Below are positions 703 through 16,773 of a DNA stretch of 64,000 bases, in pieces. The stretch covers positions 32,001 to 96,000 of IMG/VR virus record IMGVR_UViG_2695420521_000002; one strand, written 5' to 3'. Within the stretch, counting starts at the first letter, position 1, and every line of letters begins with the position of its first letter. The notes under the pieces were generated by a model. That model searched no databases and was not told the origin of the DNA. It saw nothing but the letters and a program-made list of their open reading frames with translations. Both the position numbers and the translations under genes were made by a program. Origin of the DNA: a virus. Lineage: Duplodnaviria; Heunggongvirae; Uroviricota; Caudoviricetes.

Positions 703-1554
703 ATGATAAATTATGTCTACGGCGAACAACTGTACCAGGAGTTCGTCAGCTTCAGGGATCTCTTTCTAAAAAAAGCTGTTGCACGCGCCCAACACGTTGA
801 TACCGCCAGCGACGGTCGTCCTGTACGCCCGGTTGTCGTTCTACCGTTCAAAGAAACGGACAGCATTCAGGCTGAAATTGATAAATGGACTTTAATGGCG
901 CGGGAACTGGAACAGTACCCAGACCTCAATATCCCAAAGACTATTTTATATCCAGTGCCTAACATCCTTCGCGGTGTGCGCAAGGTTACAACTTATCAGA
1001 CAGAAGCTGTGAACAGCGTCAACATGACCGCTGGCCGCATTATTCATCTGATTGATAAGGACATTCGCATCCAAAAAAGCGCGGGGATCAATGAGCACAG
1101 TGCGAAATACATAGAGAACCTGGAAGCAACAAAAGAGCTAATGAGGCAGTACCCGGAGGATGAAAAATTCCGTATGCGTGTACACGGCTTTAGCGAAACA
1201 ATGCTGCGCGTCCACTACATCTCCAGTAGCCCTAACTACAATGATGGTAAATCAGTTAGTTACCATGTACCGCTGTGTGGCGTGTTTATCTGCGATGAAA
1301 CTCTCCGTGATGGAATCATCATCAACGGTGAATTCGAAAAAGCAAAATTTAGCCTTTATGACTCCATAGAACCGATCATCTGCGACCGCTGGCCGCAAGC
1401 AAAAATATATCGCCTGGCAGATATTGAAAATGTAAAAAAACAAATTGCCATCACTCGCGAAGAGAAAAAGGTTAAGTCAGCCGCATCAGTTACGCGCAGC
1501 CGTAAAACCAAGAAGGGGCAGCCAGTAAACGACAACCCCGAAAGCGCGCAATAA
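703..1554 (+). CDS. c1: C1 primary immunity repressor
   Basis: 283-aa ORF recognised as P1 C1 (MINYVYGEQLYQEF...); cognate operators scattered through the window. Confidence 0.9.
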   Translation: MINYVYGEQLYQEFVSFRDLFLKKAVARAQHVDTASDGRPVRPVVVLPFKETDSIQAEIDKWTLMARELEQYPDLNIPKTILYPVPNILRGVRKVTTYQTEAVNSVNMTAGRIIHLIDKDIRIQKSAGINEHSAKYIENLEATKELMRQYPEDEKFRMRVHGFSETMLRVHYISSSPNYNDGKSVSYHVPLCGVFICDETLRDGIIINGEFEKAKFSLYDSIEPIICDRWPQAKIYRLADIENVKKQIAITREEKKVKSAASVTRSRKTKKGQPVNDNPESAQ

Positions 1555-4766: not shown

Positions 4767-5959
4767 TAATCATCATCCCCGTACAGTTTGCGGGTAACTT
4801 CTTCGTCTTCCTCCTCGTCTTCGTCCAGATCCTGTTCAAGCCATGCTTCGTTTGATATGCCTTCCGCATCGACATCACCATAACCACCTGTATCGACGAT
4901 ATCGGCAATTTCTTCTCTACGATGCTCAATCCACAATGCGGCATCAGCGCGGCGGCTGGCGGCCCGTTCTCGCGCGATTTTATCCAGATCTTCAAGTGAT
5001 GGAGCGCCAGATGCTGTTTGGTTTTCCTCATCATCGGTATTGGTCTTAGGAGCACGCAGATCGGCTTTGATTTGCTCCAGCATCAGGGGCGGCACTTTTC
5101 CGCCATGCGCCTCGATGAATTCAGCAGCTTCCAGCACTGACCAGTTATTTTCACGCTTTCGTTCGTATGCCAGCTTAACAATGCCAGCTTGCCCCATAGA
5201 TAAAGCGTGCTTTTCCGCCTCCCGGCTTTCTTTTCGATAGTTATTCCGGATGCTATAAATGGTGTTGATCAGGCTGCTTATCTGCGCGGAACAGCTGTTT
5301 AGCATGCTCGCGATACGGTATTCAGGCGGAGTACCTTCATCATCGTCTTTTTGCTGATCGCGCATTTCCTGCACCAGGCGAATACACGTATCCCGGGCGT
5401 TCTCCAGCATAAGGAGATGAGAAAGAGACTTTTCAAGAAGAGTGGTTTCCAGAACATCGGCCCCGGACCGACGCAACATAGCGCGCGCGGCCTTCCGCGC
5501 TTCAACGTTATCTATCAGGTAATCGCCAGCTTCGAATTCAAAGCGTTCACCATCATCATCCAGGGTGTCGCGTTCCAGGCGATCACGTAAGGTCCGGTGG
5601 GCGCGGGTGATCACGTCATGATCATCTGAACGATCATTTATGCGCTTATTTTGGCGCTTCGCATTCTCGACTGCGGCACTGATAACGGCATTAACTCTTT
5701 GTTTTTCCGCTATTTCAGCCGCAATGTGATCACCTGCATGTTGATCATTAGAGTGATCAATGATCATGCTTTTTAGTGGCTTCCTGACTGGCTTATTTGG
5801 CTTGCGGCTGTCCGCTGTCCTGGTGTCTTCTTTAAAGGCACGGAGATAACGACGTGCAGTATTAGGGTTAAGATTAAACTCGGCGGCATACTGTGCGATG
5901 GTGTAACCACCATCTCGCGCCAGGCGAGCAAAATTCTTCTTGTGATCGTCCCAGGTCAC
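4766..5959 (-). CDS. pacA: terminase small subunit / pac recognition protein PacA
   Basis: 397 aa; contains the pac hexamer cluster within its coding sequence. Confidence 0.85.
5580..5766. other. pac: pac packaging site: two clusters of TGATCA/G hexamers (Dam sites)
   Basis: hexamers at 5580, 5608, 5619, 5631 and at 5727, 5742, 5754, 5761 flanking a ~90-bp core; matches known P1 pac architecture. Confidence 0.7.
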
Positions 5960-8438: not shown

Positions 8439-8444
8439 AAACAC

Positions 8445-8476
8445 CTCGTGTACTCGTTATGTGTACACAATTATAA
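8445..8476 (-). promoter_or_regulatory. phd-doc promoter/operator with palindromic Phd-binding sites
   Basis: palindrome tgtgtacaca (8460..8469) and related site at 8445..8456, adjacent to a TATAAT on - strand. Confidence 0.6.
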
Positions 8477-8851
8477 ACTTCACAGGCATAAAGCACCAGC
8501 ACTTTGCAGCTTAAATAACCGGACAATAATCAAATTCCCCACTTCGGGCATCATTGATGACATGAGTGATCACACCAAAAACAGCATTACTGCCCGTACA
8601 TCCTAGTGTTGACGTGGATACATCCACTATCTTTGGCTATCCGCTGCCCACATGAAGTAGCTCACTGATGGATATCGAAGTAACCTTGCTGAAAATTACC
8701 GCTAGTTATTCATACTCCGCCATTCCTCCTATGCTTCCATACACCGAGTTCATGTGTTTTTAATCGACAGTAACCATCTGAAACATAGATAAGAGAATCT
8801 AAAACGAAGGTCTACTCTATGCTAAATAGAAAGGGAGGCTCAATAGAATAA

Positions 8852-8875
8852 TGGCGTTGAGGAAGTCAACGCCAT
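8852..8875. terminator. hairpin terminator downstream of adhesin gene
   Basis: 9-bp stem tggcgttga/tcaacgcca with AT-rich flanks on both strands. Confidence 0.5.
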
Positions 8876-8909
8876 TATTATTTAAGATTGAGTCATTCTA
8901 AGCAAAAAA

Positions 8910-11900
8910 TTATTCCGCTTCCTTATCATTCGCCTCTACAGCATTAATGGTTATTGTTACCGGTTCCATTTCGTATCCTCCATAGTTTAGAGAGTTGAAT
9001 GTTAATGTATATTTTCCTGGCTTAGTGGTGCTAAATTTGCGTGTAATTTTACCGTTTACAAAATGGTCGGATTTAGAAGGCAGGAATTCATAATCCTCTT
9101 CTTTCACATTGTCAGGTGCCTGAATCTCAACCCACATAGTGCCCCCGACAGGATTATTTTCCGCCATAAGAGTAATCTCCAACGTTGCGGTTGTTGTCCC
9201 ATCCGCCACCAGAGATGTAACATCAGACGATGCGGCAAGCACTGCGTTTTTGTAATCCACAACGAATCTGGACTCAGCTGTTTTAGTCGATGTTTGACCA
9301 TTAGTCTGCTTAACTGTAGCCGTCACTGTATACGTCGCAGCCGTTGTTGTTGTAGCAGTGAAAACAGCCAGCCCTTGCTCATCTGTTGTAGCCCCCCCGT
9401 CAGGTGACAGAGTTAATTCTCCCGGACTGGTACTAGCACTGGCACTCAACGTAACCTCACTCCCTTTCAGGAGGTTGTTATTAGCATCAGTTACCGTAAT
9501 CTTGTATGTTTGTTTATCTTTACCATTTGCCAGAGCATTGTTATTAATCACCTCTATGCTAGAAATGGTTGCTGTAGCTTTGTCAGCCACAAACGTAATC
9601 GTCTTGGTATCTGAAGGCTGCTCATTTTCTGTTGATGCCGTGACCTCATACGATCCAGCAATCACGGAAACTACTTGTAGTTCCGCTTTACCCTCATCGT
9701 TGGTCCTCACCCAAATGTGTTTCCCAGTAATAGGTCTGACCCCCTTTGGTAGATTAAACGTCACCAACTCTCCAGGAACTGCATTGCTATTTTTATCCTT
9801 AACAATAGCCGTCAGCGTAAAGGCATCACTGCCATTTGCTGCTCTTTGAGAGCTATCGTCAACCTGAAGGCTTACCTGCCCAGAACTGGCATCCGCACTG
9901 AACGTCACCGTAACCGTCTTCTGAGCACCATTCACCGAAGCAGTAATATTGTGTTCCCCAGCAACCGTTGACATCAACTCAATATCAGCTTTACCCGCCG
10001 CATTAGTTGTTACCGTATTCCCTGTCTTGCTGGTCACACCCTGCGGTAAAGTCAGCGTGACATTTTGCCCCTGTAACGGGTTGCCATAGGTATCCACGAC
10101 GGTCAGAGTTATCTGGTTAGCAGACTGTCCATTAGCCAGTTGGTTGTTAACCTTCACTGTCATATCACTGATTACTGCCTGAGATGTGTCACCTGCAACA
10201 TTCAGCACCAGAGGCTGGGCAACGGCATTTTGGCCGTTCACTCGCGGCATCACGATTAATTCACCCGCCGTAGTACCCAGAGAAATCTGCGCAGTCCATG
10301 TTCCATCGCCATTATCTGTCCAATCTGATACCGACGACCCCGTAGAGGCTGCGCCCGATAATGACGGCGCTTCCGGGGTGATACCTGTTACTGGGTTGTC
10401 ATTGGCATCTTTTGCTGACCAGATTGCCGTAAGCGTACCGCCAACCACAGGTTTATCCGAGGTCAGAGTGATAGTTGAGTGTTTGGCATCAATCGGCCCG
10501 GCAACAAACTTCAGCGTTTGTTGCAACAAGCCCAACTGATACTGCTCACTAAAGACACGCACAACAACATCTCCGGCACTGGTCGAAGAAACCGTGGCGC
10601 TGTAAATCCCAGGTTTTATCTCCGAAATAGTGCCAACGGTAACTCCGTTGTTGTCCTGCGGAACAAAGCGCAGACGGCTGGCTTCTCCCGTCACAGCGTT
10701 GCCATCGGTATCTACCGCTGTAAGCGTCAGCGTGTAGGATTGCTGACCATCAGCAGTCACATCATCTGAAAGCTCACTCACACTCAGAGTGGACTTTGTC
10801 ACATCCATCATTGTGGCACGCAAATCGGCAGTAACGGTTTTGCTCATACCATCAATGCTCACAGTAATGGTTGCTTCACCTGATTGCGTACCAGTAGTGA
10901 AGACTGACTGATACACCCCTGCTTCAGTTTCGGTGAACTCACCTAATGTTGGCTGTGTCTGTGATTTAGCAGACCTAAGAGCCCGCGTTACAATGTTTCC
11001 GGCAGGTTTAAACGTCAGCTCAGTCTTGATCTGATCTTTCATACCCGTGATTGGTTGTCCCTCGGCATCGCGGAGAGACAGCGCCAGCGTTTTTTGCGAG
11101 CTACCATTAGCAAGCATCTGGATACTGTCCTGTCCGTCAAGCGTTAGCGCAGAACGATCGGCACTCATACTCGCACCGGTAATGACCACCTGTGTCTTTA
11201 CACGCTTCGAGGCATTGCCTTTGTTATCATATGCTACCGCAGAGATCGCGTAATAATTGTCTTTGCCTGCCTGATAAGCCGGGAGCGTCACTTGCCACTG
11301 GTTGCCCTGCCCGGTAATTTTACCGCCCGCAGCCAGCAAAGACGGCGCCTCCCACTGCACATTTTTTAGACCGTGGGTTGCTTTACTGACCACAAGCCCC
11401 AGGGATACCGTCTGCCCGCTCTTACCTTCAATACGCTCAGGCAGAGCAATACGGATCACTTCAGATTTGCGGTATTCAAGAACGATGTTGTTATTACGCT
11501 CAACCAGGTCATAGCGGCTGCCTGTCAGCACACGGCGCTCGCGAATGCTATCCGTATCGAGTTGTTTTTCCAGAGGTTCGCCAATCCGGTAGTTAATTTC
11601 CAGGCCCAAACGGGTGTCATTCTGACCGCTCTTGCCCTGCTTATGCTCTGCGCTCAGGGTCAGAAGAGGTACAGGCGTGTAGTTCACCCCAGCTGAAATA
11701 GCATGTGGGTTTTTCTGGCGTTTATCTTTACCAAACAGTCCTACCTCATCGCCGTAATACTGTTCATACATCAGGCTTGCGCCAAGCTGTGGCCAGGCCG
11801 GTAAATAGCCCTCAGCACGGATATCCCAGCCATTCGCCGGACGTTCCTGATAATCCTCAACATCCGGCGATTTTTTCCAGCCAGAAGCCCGGATATAACC

Positions 11901-12545
11901 ATTGGCGCTCAGTTTAAGATAATCACGCCAGTATTCCGTACCAATACCAATGCGGGTATGACTACGGGATAAATCATGGTCAATGAAGGTATTCACCCCC
12001 GCCATCCAGTCATTACCTGAGAAATGGCGCCAGCCGAAACCAATATTTGACTGAGTGCGATCGTCAGTGCGATGTATTGCCCCCTGAGTGAACAGCATAT
12101 TTGTCGGCGTGTCATATATCGGATAAAGCATTTCCAGCGAAGAATCCTTCAGCGAGAAATCTTTATCGGCATTCAGTTTGACGCGCGCGGTGCCATATTT
12201 CCCGAGCCACTCCTGGATTTCCTGGGTGGCCTTAGCAGTAGCCATTCCGGTAACAAAGTTGCGAGTCGCATCGCTATCCGGCTGACTGCTTAAAAATTTA
12301 CCGGCATTCGCGGCAACCGACGCGATATTTTTTTCTGCATTATTGTCAGTAGCAACCGCAGTATTTTCCGTAGTTAGACGTGGCAAAGTCGCATTATGCG
12401 CCCGCGCTGCCATTGTCGGTGTAAAAGTGACAGCCAATGGAAAAAGAACCTGAACAGAGATGTTTGCCCATGCCACACATCTAGCCAAGGCGGAATAGCG
12501 GAAACGTTGTTGTTTATAAGTTTTATTTAAACGTAACATTGACAT
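8910..12545 (-). CDS. intimin/invasin-family inverse autotransporter adhesin with tandem Ig-like domains
   Basis: 1211 aa; N-terminal signal, beta-barrel region with family motifs (GIGTEYWRDYLKLSANGY, ERPANGWDIRAEGYLP, LMYEQYYGDEVGLF, TGSRYDLVERNNNIVLEYRK), then repeated T/S/V-rich Ig-like segments; AT-rich upstream region. Confidence 0.8.
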   Translation of the reverse strand: MSMLRLNKTYKQQRFRYSALARCVAWANISVQVLFPLAVTFTPTMAARAHNATLPRLTTENTAVATDNNAEKNIASVAANAGKFLSSQPDSDATRNFVTGMATAKATQEIQEWLGKYGTARVKLNADKDFSLKDSSLEMLYPIYDTPTNMLFTQGAIHRTDDRTQSNIGFGWRHFSGNDWMAGVNTFIDHDLSRSHTRIGIGTEYWRDYLKLSANGYIRASGWKKSPDVEDYQERPANGWDIRAEGYLPAWPQLGASLMYEQYYGDEVGLFGKDKRQKNPHAISAGVNYTPVPLLTLSAEHKQGKSGQNDTRLGLEINYRIGEPLEKQLDTDSIRERRVLTGSRYDLVERNNNIVLEYRKSEVIRIALPERIEGKSGQTVSLGLVVSKATHGLKNVQWEAPSLLAAGGKITGQGNQWQVTLPAYQAGKDNYYAISAVAYDNKGNASKRVKTQVVITGASMSADRSALTLDGQDSIQMLANGSSQKTLALSLRDAEGQPITGMKDQIKTELTFKPAGNIVTRALRSAKSQTQPTLGEFTETEAGVYQSVFTTGTQSGEATITVSIDGMSKTVTADLRATMMDVTKSTLSVSELSDDVTADGQQSYTLTLTAVDTDGNAVTGEASRLRFVPQDNNGVTVGTISEIKPGIYSATVSSTSAGDVVVRVFSEQYQLGLLQQTLKFVAGPIDAKHSTITLTSDKPVVGGTLTAIWSAKDANDNPVTGITPEAPSLSGAASTGSSVSDWTDNGDGTWTAQISLGTTAGELIVMPRVNGQNAVAQPLVLNVAGDTSQAVISDMTVKVNNQLANGQSANQITLTVVDTYGNPLQGQNVTLTLPQGVTSKTGNTVTTNAAGKADIELMSTVAGEHNITASVNGAQKTVTVTFSADASSGQVSLQVDDSSQRAANGSDAFTLTAIVKDKNSNAVPGELVTFNLPKGVRPITGKHIWVRTNDEGKAELQVVSVIAGSYEVTASTENEQPSDTKTITFVADKATATISSIEVINNNALANGKDKQTYKITVTDANNNLLKGSEVTLSASASTSPGELTLSPDGGATTDEQGLAVFTATTTTAATYTVTATVKQTNGQTSTKTAESRFVVDYKNAVLAASSDVTSLVADGTTTATLEITLMAENNPVGGTMWVEIQAPDNVKEEDYEFLPSKSDHFVNGKITRKFSTTKPGKYTLTFNSLNYGGYEMEPVTITINAVEANDKEAE

Positions 12546-12993
12546 AATTTCTTGATGAACGCGTTAACGAACATTTGCAACTGCGAGTAAAAACATTTGC
12601 TTTCAGAAATTTCCGAGAGAAAACTCCTAGGGGGCGCGGATGCTATCACAAACCAAAAAGTGTAACAATACATGAACCAGAGAATTAATGCTTGTTATTT
12701 ATCTGTCACCAATATGTTGTGATTGGTTAGCGTCAATGTTATTGGTTATGTTTACCAAATAATAAGAGGGAGTATTTCAATACATGAGAGGATGATTTTT
12801 TTAACATGGGAAGTGAAATCTTTTCCATTATTACATGGTTTATAAATTATAAAAAATGCCCCAATCCATGAATAACGCCTTTAGAGAAATACCCCCCCAT
12901 TTCTATATAATAACTTTGATGTAATGGACGATATATTAGAGCATGTGGCACGCAATCAGATAATAACAATCTTTTCCTTGGATAAATTAGAGA

Positions 12994-13140
12994 TTAATAG
13001 TGCGTCATATTCACGACATAATGGCACACAAGGATTTCTAGATTATTGTTTATTACAATCGATACTATTAAGGTTTTTTTGTTGATAGAGAACAGCCAGA
13101 AATAGATCGCGGCCATAATGATTTTGAATGCCGTGTTCAT
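12994..13140 (-). CDS. possible small hydrophobic peptide
   Basis: 48 aa from internal ATG (MNTAFKIIMAAIYFWLFSINKK...) preceded by AGGAGC; AT-rich region, weak support. Confidence 0.2.
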   Translation of the reverse strand: MNTAFKIIMAAIYFWLFSINKKTLIVSIVINNNLEILVCHYVVNMTHY

Positions 13141-13167
13141 ATTTTCAGCTCCTGTGATTGATTGGAA

Positions 13168-13199
13168 ACATGCCGCGCCTTGCGGCATGTTTTTATTTT
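13168..13199. terminator. GC-rich hairpin with T-run
   Basis: acatgccgc-gcct-gcggcatgt followed by ttttatttt on + strand; just downstream of the HAD-like operon. Confidence 0.4.
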
Positions 13200-13222
13200 C
13201 ACTTTCTCTGTTTTAAAAATCA

Positions 13223-13239
13223 AGATTTATTAGAGCAAT
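13223..13239 (-). promoter_or_regulatory. C1 operator-like 17-mer
   Basis: agatttattagagcaat; 16/17; overlaps stop of HAD-like gene. Confidence 0.6.
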
Positions 13240-13745
13240 TATTGTTGATAAAGAAGCGCATTTTCATACTCCCTGACCATTAACGTAAGCACGCCGTGCC
13301 TCCTGAAAACACGCGCCACTTCAATCTTATCTTCCAGCGCGAACGCGATTTTACTTAGACCAATTTTCTTAAGGAGATCAATCTTTGCTGGGCCGTCATT
13401 TCTGTCATCGGTGGCAGGACGCATAGATAGCAAAGGCTCAGCCCCGTTTGTTACGTACTTCCGCAGCCAGGCTCGTGTTTTATCCCTTGCGATCTCACAG
13501 CGCCCGGTTACAAACCAGACCGTGTAAACGTTAAATAACTGGCGCACCATATCAATAACTGGAGTGATGGGAGCATCAGTGTCACAGGCAAGGTTAAACT
13601 CGTTCCAGTGCTCTGTTAATGCACCTTTGCCAGGTGGTGGAAGCAAATGCAGCCTGTCTTCCGTTGCCTCTGATATCGTCCCATCAATATCGACTATGAC
13701 GATATACGGACGTTCCTGGTGTGCGTGTTTATTGAAAATACTCAA
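13239..13745 (-). CDS. HAD-superfamily phosphatase-like protein
   Basis: 168 aa with N-terminal DxDGT motif (IVIVDIDGTIS). Confidence 0.55.
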   Translation of the reverse strand: MSIFNKHAHQERPYIVIVDIDGTISEATEDRLHLLPPPGKGALTEHWNEFNLACDTDAPITPVIDMVRQLFNVYTVWFVTGRCEIARDKTRAWLRKYVTNGAEPLLSMRPATDDRNDGPAKIDLLKKIGLSKIAFALEDKIEVARVFRRHGVLTLMVREYENALLYQQ

Positions 13746-13818
13746 ATGCCCTCCTCATTGGACGAAAAAAATGCTGGTGGGACGCACTCCACCAGCATTA
13801 AAAGTGACACTGTAACTA

Positions 13819-15081
13819 TCAGCGAACGTAAATAGTGCCGCCGTTCTCTTTTTCCCATGCATCGCTACGTGCATAGCAAACATCGAGAAGTCTTCTTGCC
13901 GCTGTTTCCTCTAAACCCAATTCGACAACCAACTGCTCATGACGGCGGGTAACCACATCAAACAGGGTATGCAGCCCTTTATTGGCCAGTTCATCAATGA
14001 ATTCCGGTTCGAACGGCAGCTCTGCCTCTGCCAACATAACCTCTTGCGCCCACTCAACTCGACGGACCAGTTCCGGGCGGCGGCTTTCCATCTCTTTACA
14101 GATCAATTCATGGAAGAACTCTACCCAACCTTCCGGCTGGAACTCGCGGAAAATGGCCAACGGCTGGAAGTTTGGCATCAACCATTCGTTGATCCGGATA
14201 TCAATGGCATAGCCCATGTCGCAGCAGAACTGATAAGCAAAGTCCAGCTTAGAAACGATATAAGGACGCTCGTTATTGAACTCTTTAGGCGATGAGATCC
14301 CATAAGCCAGGAGGCGCGGGAAGAATGAGATTTGCCCTAACGTCGGATGGAGTTTGCTTGCAGGGAAACGGCGCTCAGTAATGCCATACATTTCCTTCTT
14401 GAGCGTCGCAAATTTGGCATTCTCATTAACCAGCGCGGCAACCTCTGCTTTTTTATTAGCAAATGCCACGCGCGCCTCGCTTGCATCTTTAATAGTTTTT
14501 TTGAGCTGTTGGTTAAGGTCGGCGACCTGCTTACGCAGTTCCTGTCGCTCGCTTTTAGCTTTGTTATAGCGTTTCTCAAGGTTAAAAGGATCAAGTTTCA
14601 TGATCTCTTTATATTGAGATTTTAGCGTTGAAATCTGTGAGTTCCGCAGTTCAACCATCGCGGTCATTTCATTGAGTTTTGTTTCCAGCTCAATGCTTAT
14701 ACGTTCGGCTTTATCAGCACGCTGGTTGGCATCATGCGTCGCATCGTCGATCGCGTCCTGTTGCTGGCGTTTCAAATGTTCAATTTGCAGCTGAAGCTCT
14801 TCAATTTCTTTACCCTTCAGACCGAGATCCAACTGCATATTTTCAGCTGCATCTACCAGGGAGTTATGGCTATCAGCTTCTGCGTTATAAACATCAATAA
14901 GCTGTGCGTGAAGCATCTCCGCTGACTGAACCGCATTATCAAAAAAACGTGCTGTGAGGTCATCACAACTAACGCGGCGTTGCGCGGCCCGGATGTTCTG
15001 GATAATGGCCGGGATACCGGCATTCAGGACGTCAGGGATAGATACATTTTCGATTGATTGGTTTTGTGCTGAAGTGCTCAT
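13819..15081 (-). CDS. hypothetical protein, N-terminal coiled coil
   Basis: 420-aa ORF, heptad-rich central region, no recognised catalytic motif. Confidence 0.5.
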   Translation of the reverse strand: MSTSAQNQSIENVSIPDVLNAGIPAIIQNIRAAQRRVSCDDLTARFFDNAVQSAEMLHAQLIDVYNAEADSHNSLVDAAENMQLDLGLKGKEIEELQLQIEHLKRQQQDAIDDATHDANQRADKAERISIELETKLNEMTAMVELRNSQISTLKSQYKEIMKLDPFNLEKRYNKAKSERQELRKQVADLNQQLKKTIKDASEARVAFANKKAEVAALVNENAKFATLKKEMYGITERRFPASKLHPTLGQISFFPRLLAYGISSPKEFNNERPYIVSKLDFAYQFCCDMGYAIDIRINEWLMPNFQPLAIFREFQPEGWVEFFHELICKEMESRRPELVRRVEWAQEVMLAEAELPFEPEFIDELANKGLHTLFDVVTRRHEQLVVELGLEETAARRLLDVCYARSDAWEKENGGTIYVR

Positions 15082-15082
15082 T

Positions 15083-15301
15083 TCAAAGTTCCGTATTAGC
15101 TTGTGCTTCGGTCATTTTTCCTAAGTATGAAGGTGGAAGGACTACGCAATTTGTATCCAGTCCCTCACCTATGGCAGCCTGTAAAATTCTGGCTAAGGTG
15201 AGTCTCTTGTTGCGATACCTGGTGATGACATGCCTGATACCGCCGGTCGGCGTAACAAAGGCGATCAGCCAGTAGTGATATTTCCGTCGGAATGGCCACA
15301 T
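15083..15301 (-). CDS. hypothetical small protein
   Basis: 72-aa ORF, first gene downstream of operator pair, tightly packed with next gene. Confidence 0.35.
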   Translation of the reverse strand: MWPFRRKYHYWLIAFVTPTGGIRHVITRYRNKRLTLARILQAAIGEGLDTNCVVLPPSYLGKMTEAQANTEL

Positions 15302-15315
15302 AGTGCACCTTATGG

Positions 15316-15332
15316 ATTGCTCTAATAAAAAA
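15316..15332 (+). promoter_or_regulatory. C1 operator-like 17-mer
   Basis: attgctctaataaaaaa; 14/17; inverted partner of 15365..15381. Confidence 0.5.
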
Positions 15333-15356
15333 CGTGATGAGTGTACATCACGTTTT
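15327..15356. terminator. perfect palindrome / bidirectional terminator between two operators
   Basis: aaaaaacgtgatg-agtgta-catcacgtttt with A/T runs on both sides; core gtgtaca resembles phd operator core. Confidence 0.5.
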
Positions 15357-15364
15357 AAAAATAT

Positions 15365-15381
15365 GGAATTATTAGAGCAAT
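15365..15381 (-). promoter_or_regulatory. C1 operator-like 17-mer
   Basis: ggaattattagagcaat; 14/17. Confidence 0.5.
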
Positions 15382-15382
15382 A

Positions 15383-16084
15383 TTATTCTGATTCTCGCTC
15401 AAAAAACGAGCTAATGAGGGGAAGCCAATCCTCTGACACTTCGCGAGGCCGCGGTTTGCCGTGGAAAAAGATTATTCGGCAGTCCTTTGGTAATGTCCCG
15501 TTCCCCCTGGAGTAACGCGCGCTCGCATATTTTGAACCAGGTTCCACAACATCGGCCTTGTAACTTACAAACCATCCTGGATACAGATCCTGAAATGCTG
15601 GTGTATCATCGCCCATAACCTTCCGTAAGAACCCCTGATCACCCCAGCATTCAGTAGTAACACAACGAGCAATCCAACCTTCTGGATCTTGCCAGAATGA
15701 ACTCCAGATATGTGCTTTTACACTATTTGGTATCCACAGGGCACCGCTACCACGATATTGTGGATGGTAAAAATCCCTAAGCATGGTGAAGCTGGTTGGT
15801 GGATTCTCAAGGATTGGGCGTATATCACCGGCAATAACTGTGTCCAAATCCAGATAGAACAGATCATCGGTTATATCCGGTCGGAACAACTCGATTTTCG
15901 CCCACCAGCCACGGCACTTTTGCCACTGGTTGATCAATGGGACAACTTTGACGCCAGGCACATGTAAACGCTTCAGATCTGTCAGGCAAATAATTTCATA
16001 GCCTTTTGGCAGTTGATTAACCAGCCACTGCACATCGGAAGCGTTATAGTCGCCACCAGAGCGAAGAACTAAAGCAATCTTCAT
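15383..16084 (-). CDS. hypothetical protein (possible nucleotide-sugar transferase-like, DxD motif)
   Basis: 233-aa ORF overlapping start of phosphatase gene; LDLDTV motif only. Confidence 0.4.
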
Positions 16085-16773
16085 GCTGCACCATCACCTT
16101 TCACTTTCATCAATGTCAGGTTTCCGCAAAATACGGCACCAGTGTCGATATAATGCTGATTCCAGAATGTCTTCGGGCTTTTCACCGGAGTGTGACCAAA
16201 GATAAAACGATCTGCGCCCGAAATTTCGCCACCAATATCATCCATCGAATCACTGATACGCTCGCGCGCCCAGACAACGTTGAAAAGCGGCACCTCCTTA
16301 CCGAATTGATATTCATTATCCGGATAGTCGGCATGGGCTATAACGATAGTTTCTTGCCCGGTGTTCAACTCAATGATATAGGGCAGACGTCTTACCAGCT
16401 CCACCAGCGCCCTGGCTAATATTTCCTGATCAGTGTCCAACATGAAGAACCATTGTCCACCATTCATTAGCCAGTTATTCACGTTGCCATCAGGACTTAA
16501 CGCATCGAGCATCAACCGCTCATGGTTCCCCATCACTGCCCTGAACCAGGGCATCTGCAATAGTTCCAGACATTCGACATTTTCAGTACCGCGATCGATA
16601 AGGTCGCCGACCGATATCAGTAAATCCTGCGCCGGGTCAAAATCCACACGATGGAGTTCGGACATCAGTCTGGTGTAGCAACCATGCAGATCACCAACAA
16701 CCCAGACATTCCTGTATTTGGTACCGTCGATACGGTGATAAATTGTGGGTGCCATCATGTATTCTTCAGCCAT
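16081..16773 (-). CDS. Ser/Thr protein phosphatase, lambda-PPase-like metallophosphoesterase
   Basis: 230 aa with GDLHG, GDLIDRG, GNHE motifs; probably the P1 ppp equivalent. Confidence 0.8.

Follow-up and report, generated by a model that had tools for sequence, protein, structure and literature searches.

Bacteriophage P1 carries three early genes, pmgR, pmgS and pap, whose annotation (GenBank AF234172, 82152-84309) includes the operators OpmgRa and OpmgRb (formerly Op86a and Op86b) and OpmgT (formerly Op88), and puts PpmgR, a predicted σ70 promoter, between the two Op86 sites. The same layout is annotated in phage P7, where the genes are named shtA, shtB and pap, and in both GenBank records the binding of the repressor C1 at Op86a and Op86b is entered as protein_bind annotation. 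Single-gene deletions in P1 revealed that pmgR is essential, given that the ΔpmgR mutant forms no plaques and produces unjoined heads and tails, and that it can be complemented in trans (PMC9024508). Mutants lacking pmgS or pap plate normally, and neither protein was found in the virion proteome with LC-MS/MS (PMC9024508; PMC10695390). Furthermore, across 77 P1-like phage-plasmids, the 21 genes with the strongest conservation include both pmgR and pmgS (PMC9603915). Here we describe the corresponding locus in a 64,000-nucleotide stretch of viral DNA (hereafter the window), which corresponds to positions 32,001 to 96,000 of IMG/VR record IMGVR_UViG_2695420521_000002.

Relationship of the locus to P1

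Positions 13100-15500 of the window align with positions 82034-84432 of P1 at 98.5% nucleotide identity and 100% query coverage, and are comparably near to P7, RCS47, SJ46 and other P1-like phages. The P1 annotation was transferred to the window with an offset of 10100. Judged by this sequence match, the cluster is the repressor-controlled set of pmgR, pmgS and pap early genes already annotated in P1, carried by a P1-like phage-plasmid. An initial annotation of the window had described a C1-controlled lytic operon of three genes with unknown function, and a check of open reading frames (ORFs) confirmed its three coding regions, all on the minus strand. These are pmgR (15083-15301; 72 amino acids, from the ORF list and the P1 annotation; phrog_3177), pmgS (13819-15081; 420 amino acids), which starts one nucleotide past the pmgR stop codon (TGAAATG), and pap (13239-13745; 168 amino acids), which has a TTG start behind GAGGAGG. 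Relative to P1, there are no amino acid differences in PmgR, six in PmgS and three in Pap.

The order pmgQ, Op86, pmgR, pmgS, pap and Op88 reproduces that of P1, with the same features over 2.4 kb, and is common to all 80 P1-like loci in IMG/VR. The locus is like those of P1 and P7 in gene order, gene lengths, operators, hairpins and spacing. It differs from P1 only in its flank, where beyond Op88 the pmgT-humD block has been exchanged for a gene encoding a 1211-amino-acid FdeC-like inverse autotransporter adhesin. The pmgT-humD region is one of eight variable regions known in P1-like phage-plasmids (PMC9603915). The carrier is a P1-like phage-plasmid and not P1 itself.

As such, the locus adds nothing new, in that the operators, genes and essentiality data of P1 are published and annotated. 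The core of the initial description, a C1-repressed unit that is expressed on induction, was right, as indicated by the P1 annotation of Op86 and by the presence of c1 in the window. The view that its functions are unknown is outdated for pmgR, in light of the deletion data above (PMC9024508), and for Pap, which has a PNKP-type 3'-phosphatase domain. Taken as a whole, we consider it probable that the region comprises the C1-repressed P1 unit pmgR-pmgS with pap downstream, with the regulation and protein roles proposed below. The only new leads concern PmgS, which acquires its first structural and contextual ones: a double helix-hairpin-helix domain, abbreviated (HhH)2, an orphan domain, and relatives that reside in recombination-module neighbourhoods.

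C1 operators that bracket the predicted pmgR promoter

The consensus C1 operator is the asymmetric 17-bp sequence ATTGCTCTAATAAATTT, with the core ATTGCTCTAATAA. Op86a (ATTGCTCTAATAATTCC; 15365-15381, minus strand), which is annotated in P1 and P7, and the inverted Op86b (ATTGCTCTAATAAAAAA; 15316-15332, plus strand) each match this consensus at 14 of 17 positions and retain a perfect ATTGCTCTAATAA core, and thus each has three mismatches outside the 13 core nucleotides. The 13-nucleotide cores of the two sites are perfectly inverted, in agreement with the inverted operator pair reported initially. Sites of this type are strongly enriched in the window, with 15 found and 0.36 expected, and none of 100 shuffled sequences reached 15. 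The cognate repressor is encoded in the window by c1 (703-1554, plus strand), whose 283-amino-acid product is 99-100% identical to C1 of P1-like phages and acts in trans.

Op86a overlaps the predicted -35 element of PpmgR, and Op86b falls downstream of the predicted transcription start and ahead of the pmgR ribosome-binding site. In a lysogen, C1 made from the same window would occupy both inverted 17-bp operators, one over the -35 element and the other just past the transcription start, and so bracket the σ70 promoter. We infer this occupancy because of the operator sequences and the P1 annotation. Two relatives whose PmgS proteins are 71% (locus L007, from Salmonella) and 52% (locus L005) identical keep the geometry of the operator pair with the same 66-bp span, and both also have an operator placed after pap. 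This position matches that of Op88 (ATTGCTCTAATAAATCT; 13223-13239, minus strand), which abuts the pap stop codon and is where the conserved block ends.

Other C1-controlled promoters of P1 with several operators, such as the one at 30857-30884 of the window, likewise use more than one copy of the same asymmetric 17-bp operator to repress early lytic functions. The latter region contains two overlapping C1 operators of opposite orientation, one of them a perfect match at 17 of 17 positions, and is of the bivalent type used by P1 at other early promoters. In contrast to this overlapping pair, the Op86 operators are monovalent, inverted and non-overlapping, with centres 49 bp apart, and they bracket both the promoter and a terminator-like hairpin. 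In a more distant locus that has no C1-type operators (L004; PmgS 27% identical), the pmgR homolog is preceded at 5704-5750 by a perfect inverted pair of another 15-mer, AAGATACTAATTTAT, which occurs three times in the locus where 0.09 occurrences are expected. This pair may serve a repressor of different specificity within the same bracket architecture.

A hairpin within the predicted pmgR promoter

Between the operators, the initial annotation recognized a perfect palindrome. The site instead consists of perfect 11-bp arms (15329-15339 and 15346-15356) that flank a non-palindromic 6-nucleotide spacer, AGTGTA. Read on the minus strand, 15329-15356 forms a hairpin with the loop TACACT, followed by TTTTTTATT, such that a T-run (UUUUUUAUU) lies 3' of the stem. 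With the operator arms included, the folding energy is -26.9 kcal/mol (z -7.7), and the hairpin is located 27 nucleotides downstream of the pmgQ stop codon. In the L005 and L007 loci, the pairing is kept, with compensatory double changes at three of 11 base pairs and changes to G-U only at two more. Overall, 97.7% of alignment cells pair, compared with 39-70% when the partner columns are slid, although only four distinct sequences enter this comparison and its statistics are weak.

The predicted σ70 promoter, as transferred from P1, spans 15352-15380 on the minus strand, with TTGCTC (15375-15380) as its -35 element and TAAAAC (15352-15357) as its -10 element, the latter located inside the 5' arm of the hairpin. 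The loop hexamer TACACT (15340-15345, minus strand) offers an alternative -10 element. In L005 and L007, the loop reads TATTAT and, when taken as the -10 element, gives a better promoter-like site.

Because pairing survives compensatory and G-U changes in diverged relatives, we read the Op86 hairpin as a putative intrinsic terminator of the upstream pmgN-pmgQ operon that is nested in the pmgR promoter. RNA reading through from pmgN-pmgQ would form the hairpin and transcription would stop there. The predicted start of transcripts from PpmgR lies within the 5' arm or past it, and these transcripts would therefore be unable to form the hairpin and escape termination. If so, the nesting of operator, terminator and promoter provides a compact example of an early promoter insulated from an upstream operon. 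Both this hairpin and the one that follows pmgS have a conserved, GC-containing stem with a U-run. Weighing against the proposed arrangement is the fact that the promoter position, both terminators and the way in which pap is expressed are predictions.

The dyad could also be a protein-binding palindrome that acts at the level of DNA, or a by-product of constraints on the promoter. This explanation would account for the overlap of the hairpin with the predicted -10 element and transcription start, and it gains from the small number of distinct sequences behind the covariation and from the failure of a simple terminator scan to call the site. However, the scan missed the hairpin because the T-run is taken up into an A/T extension of the stem, and in all lineages the coding strand has a T-run 3' of the stem. 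The distance from the pmgQ stop codon is also where an operon terminator would be expected. At two stem positions pairing is retained solely through G-U wobble (G·T in DNA), which preserves an RNA helix and not the symmetry of a DNA dyad. Because of these wobbles, an RNA helix is favoured, and we judge both a DNA-level role and a by-product of promoter constraints improbable.

A more specific proposal of this kind came with the initial annotation, which noted that GTGTACA in the palindrome resembles the core of the phd operator and hinted at regulatory cross-talk. The phd operator of the window (8445-8470, minus strand) reads TGTGTACACA...GAGTACAC, with the 10-bp palindrome TGTGTACACA at 8460-8469 and a second palindromic site adjacent to it over the promoter. 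The 7-mer is indeed common to both sites, and GTGTACA at 15341-15347 matches seven of the 10 bases of TGTGTACACA. If Phd or Phd-Doc bound here, the unit would be coupled to the phd-doc addiction module. Yet the Op86 site is asymmetric (AGTGTACATC) and is not accompanied by a second adjacent site corresponding to GAGTACAC. GTGTACA occurs at chance frequency in the window (eight found versus 4.65 expected, a count reached in 15 of 100 shuffles), and the loop carries TATTAT in those relatives in which operators and stem are retained, therefore suggesting selection on the stem and on a -10-like hexamer rather than on GTGTACA. The site thus lacks the symmetry, the second site and the conservation that would mark a Phd operator, the suggestion of cross-talk is unsupported, and we regard Phd binding at Op86 as highly improbable.

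The boundary between pmgS and pap

On induction, pmgR and pmgS would be transcribed together and probably translationally coupled through the TGAAATG junction. Downstream of pmgS, a second terminator-like hairpin (13763-13799, minus strand) has an 11-bp stem with six GC pairs, an 8-nucleotide loop and a T-run (U7 in the RNA), with the stem and T-run called at 13799-13770. It begins 20 nucleotides past the pmgS stop codon, is located upstream of the pap ribosome-binding site, and is conserved in the Salmonella relative L007. Most transcripts would probably end at this strong hairpin, with pap then expressed by read-through. We favour read-through because neither a promoter-like site between pmgS and pap (promoter scan) nor a late-promoter box of the Lpa type (AAGTNACTT; searched in 13200-15400) precedes pap.

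In the alternative view, pap is an equal member of one uninterrupted C1-controlled operon whose three products act in one pathway, as the description of a three-gene operon implied. The common strand and the lack of a promoter-like site before pap both stand in its favour. In 79 of the 80 P1-like loci, pap lies 73 bp past pmgS, and genes for HAD_PNKP proteins also occur near pmgS homologs elsewhere: adjacent in L007, one gene away in L005 and three genes away in L009, in each case downstream, and four genes upstream in L013. Additionally, an RNA-sequencing study of Δhfq cells reports joint changes of pmgS and pap, as would fit co-transcription across the hairpin.

However, a tight operon of three genes is doubtful because pmgS and pap are set apart by the terminator-like hairpin, which is strong and conserved, and the P1 annotation states that Op86a governs pmgR and pmgS only. 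Two loci (L004 and L010) have no pap beside their pmgR-pmgS pair, and among 96 more distant loci with PmgS homologs none has a Pap homolog within 6 kb. The knockout phenotypes diverge as well, with pmgR essential and the other two genes dispensable. We therefore consider the single uninterrupted operon to be a rather unlikely arrangement, and treat pap as a downstream gene reached by read-through. The idea that Pap is a conserved partner of PmgS was also set aside, as the association holds only in P1-like elements.

Pap resembles the phosphatase domain of polynucleotide kinases

The 168-amino-acid product of pap was initially described as a HAD-type phosphatase, and this assignment is borne out by a match to Pfam HAD_PNKP (PF25109) with 45.9 bits, where the cut-off is 27.6. 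A profile built from five Pap sequences matches Pnkp1 (2.6e-11) and the phosphatase domain of T4 Pnk (1.3e-9 and 9.4e-9). All four catalytic motifs are present, namely D19-I-D21-G-T23 (motif I, DxDxT), T80 (motif II), K121 (motif III) and E138-D139 (motif IV), and residues D19, D21, T23, T80, K121 and D139 are invariant in five Pap homologs down to 25% identity. On this homology and the intact motifs, Pap is predicted to be a PNKP-type 3'-phosphatase that stands alone and would take 3'-phosphates off the ends of DNA or RNA.

Pap shares the PF25109 fold family and the motifs DxDxT, T, K and (E/D)D with T4 Pnkp (PDB 1LTQ and 5UJ0) and bacterial Pnkp1 (4XRP). It differs from both in consisting of the phosphatase domain alone, with neither a 5'-kinase domain nor an adjacent ligase, and in that pap is dispensable for plaque formation. 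Matches to the polynucleotide kinase families of PHROG are confined to the phosphatase part, as are the PDB profile matches, and an N-terminal P-loop 5'-kinase domain was not found in these comparisons. Because there is no kinase domain, the GenBank label '3'-phosphatase, 5'-polynucleotide kinase' overstates the protein.

Searches of NCBIfam and PADLOC returned nothing for either Pap or PmgR. A PmgR profile also found nothing in the PDB, where the best match had an E value of 2.7.

Domain architecture of PmgS

The initial annotation recognized the 420-amino-acid PmgS as a coiled-coil protein of no discernible function. The coiled coil is clear: an AlphaFold2 (AF2) model has long helices at residues 41-160 and 168-232, and the P1 annotation places a coiled coil at residues 75-220. 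As to function, PmgS alone matches no Pfam family and a single-sequence search of the PDB gave nothing meaningful, but the family profile and the predicted fold expose a C-terminal (HhH)2 domain. Thus, the AF2 model and the profile divide the protein into N-terminal helices with the coiled coil (residues ~41-232), an orphan α/β domain (~235-345) and the (HhH)2 domain (~355-412). The full-length model has a mean confidence (predicted local distance difference test, pLDDT) of 72, and residues 225-420 modelled with a 32-sequence alignment reach 91.3.

An exhaustive profile search placed 122 representatives in the PmgS family, mostly 360-470 amino acids long. Of 50 aligned members, all match phrog_1660, 14 match HHH_5 and 11 match RNA_pol_A_CTD. 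With the profile of the family, matches are obtained to the RAD51 N-terminal domain (8.7e-8), the C-terminal domain of the RNA polymerase α subunit (αCTD; 7e-6) and the AR domains of NusA. The predicted C-terminal domain has the five helices and two helix-hairpin-helix units that define the (HhH)2 fold. It differs from the (HhH)2 domains of RAD51, RAD51C and RadA (N-terminal), αCTD, and NusA AR1 and AR2 in its attachment to a long coiled coil and to the α/β domain, the latter of which has no structural match in the PDB or BFVD.

Unlike canonical (HhH)2 domains, the proteins of the P1 clade lack the G-I-G of the second hairpin. This hairpin reads KGIGxKTA in distant members, and LGLEE (P1), HSLQP or similar in the P1 clade; P1 PmgS itself scores below Pfam HHH_5. 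The nearly invariant columns of the family are P165, P303, L338, R341, W344, L365 and W409. Because none is acidic, which leaves the α/β domain without a conserved acidic residue, we do not favour an enzymatic role.

Two other candidate identities were rejected. An SMC-, Rad50- or LmuB-like coiled-coil ATPase is contradicted by NCBIfam and PADLOC matches that are restricted to the coiled-coil region and score only 17-19 bits against cut-offs of 300-729, and neither Pfam nor the model contains a Walker A/B head. A defence-system role likewise drew nothing from PADLOC and NCBIfam beyond coiled-coil noise (SMC and LmuB) far under the cut-offs. Two database PmgS sequences, P0002 and P0016, are fused to or mis-called with a cytosine methylase (480 amino acids) or a metallophosphoesterase (463 amino acids) domain, and probably reflect gene-calling or assembly artefacts in P1-like contigs.

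Genomic context and possible roles of PmgS

Clade-specific alignments uncovered distant PmgS homologs in 96 IMG/VR loci, which represent 12 lineages at 80% identity. No PmgR or Pap homolog is present within 6 kb in any of these 96 loci. Rather, genes for RecT, a YqaJ exonuclease or a PDDEXK nuclease lie within four ORFs upstream in 61 of them, or in 71 when a downstream RdgC gene is also counted. Dam or MT-A70 methylases, Rv2179c-like exonucleases and integrases are further frequent neighbours, and for Aeromonas phage phiARM81mr GenBank gives, independently, the annotated order exoVIII-RecT, PmgS homolog and Dam, with intervening genes. Therefore, the family resides in early recombination and DNA-metabolism regions.

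An RdgC-family protein is encoded two genes downstream of the PmgS homolog in locus L159 (8058-9209), where phage RdgC carries a fused FtsK-gamma (KOPS-binding) domain at its C-terminus. Of the 96 distant loci, 25 encode an RdgC-family protein at this position, and the fusion was seen in L159, which is the sole locus examined for it.

Judging from its architecture and family context, the most likely view of the dispensable PmgS is that it forms a coiled-coil dimer and uses its (HhH)2 domain to bind either DNA or a partner in the DNA machinery. More specifically, and only tentatively, we propose that the PmgS family (phrog_1660) consists of accessory proteins of temperate-phage recombination and DNA-metabolism modules, each composed of a dimeric coiled coil, the orphan α/β domain and a RAD51-N-like (HhH)2 domain, and acting with the products of RecT, exonuclease, RdgC and methylase genes. 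Such a gene would, in the P1 lineage, have been captured beside the head-completion gene pmgR, lost the glycine hairpin of the HhH unit and changed its role.

Several observations weigh against a role of P1 PmgS on DNA. The recombination-module context covers the distant homologs only, and P1 has no RecT. In view of the missing G-I-G in the second hairpin, DNA binding by P1 PmgS is not assured, and by analogy with αCTD and NusA AR2 the (HhH)2 domain could mediate protein contacts. In all 80 P1-like IMG/VR loci, and in relatives with as little as 25-28% identity in PmgS, a pmgR-like gene stands directly upstream of pmgS, and this strict adjacency in the P1 lineage could mean that PmgS assists PmgR in morphogenesis. 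P7, moreover, annotates ShtA as 'sheath structure' and ShtB as 'sheath contraction'.

These last points lead to a different hypothesis, in which PmgS is a morphogenetic helper that, for instance, aids PmgR in completing heads as its partner or chaperone, or is a sheath factor as the P7 name ShtB implies, and its loss is masked under laboratory plating. The invariant adjacency with a 1-nucleotide gap in all P1-like loci and in relatives to about 25% identity is consistent with such a role, as are the P7 gene names, the PHROG label 'PmgS-like head morphogenesis' and the place of both genes among the most conserved of the P1-like phage-plasmids (PMC9603915). The 'morphogenesis' names, however, descend from the P1 placeholder 'putative morphogenetic function'. 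The ΔpmgS mutant gives normal plaques and a normal restriction phenotype, and PmgS is missing from the proteins detected in virions (PMC9024508; PMC10695390). Thus, neither a requirement for PmgS in assembly nor its presence in the virion, either of which the phrog_1660 label would lead one to expect, is borne out by these data. Its (HhH)2 domain also speaks against the hypothesis, and the 96 distant homologs occur without PmgR and near the recombination, methylase and integrase genes listed above, not near structural genes. On balance, PmgS is probably not a virion assembly protein, and we hold the helper hypothesis to be quite unlikely. The propagated labels 'PmgS-like head morphogenesis' and 'ShtB sheath contraction', as well as the kinase part of the Pap label '3'-phosphatase, 5'-polynucleotide kinase', are unsupported by domain, knockout or context evidence.

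Flanking regions

On the side of pap (flank 8500-13238), the adhesin gene (8910-12545, minus strand) encodes the 1211-amino-acid FdeC/intimin-like inverse autotransporter between Op88 and the phd promoter. Homology to P1, including the C1-controlled PpmgT promoter region, reaches down to about 13083, and a C1-repressed promoter therefore lies about 650 bp upstream of the adhesin gene. This flank is matched best by an Escherichia albertii plasmid (NZ_CP043264; 98.1%). The promoter and operator of phd (TATAATTGTGTACACATAACGAGTACACGAGG, followed by the phd ATG; 8440-8475, minus strand) are identical to those of P1 in the stretch compared, and the adhesin cargo is thus a neighbour of the phd-doc addiction module. 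Just beyond Op88, a hairpin with a 15-bp stem and a T-run (13163-13195, plus strand) is convergent with the pap unit, and may be a terminator for rightward transcription from the cargo region.

On the opposite side, upstream of pmgR (15383-16773, minus strand), are P1 pmgQ, which PHROG labels 'glycosyltransferase' and which has no Pfam match, and ppp, which encodes a lambda-type Ser/Thr phosphatase. Together with pap, the latter gene means that a stretch of ~3.5 kb encodes two unrelated putative phosphatases.

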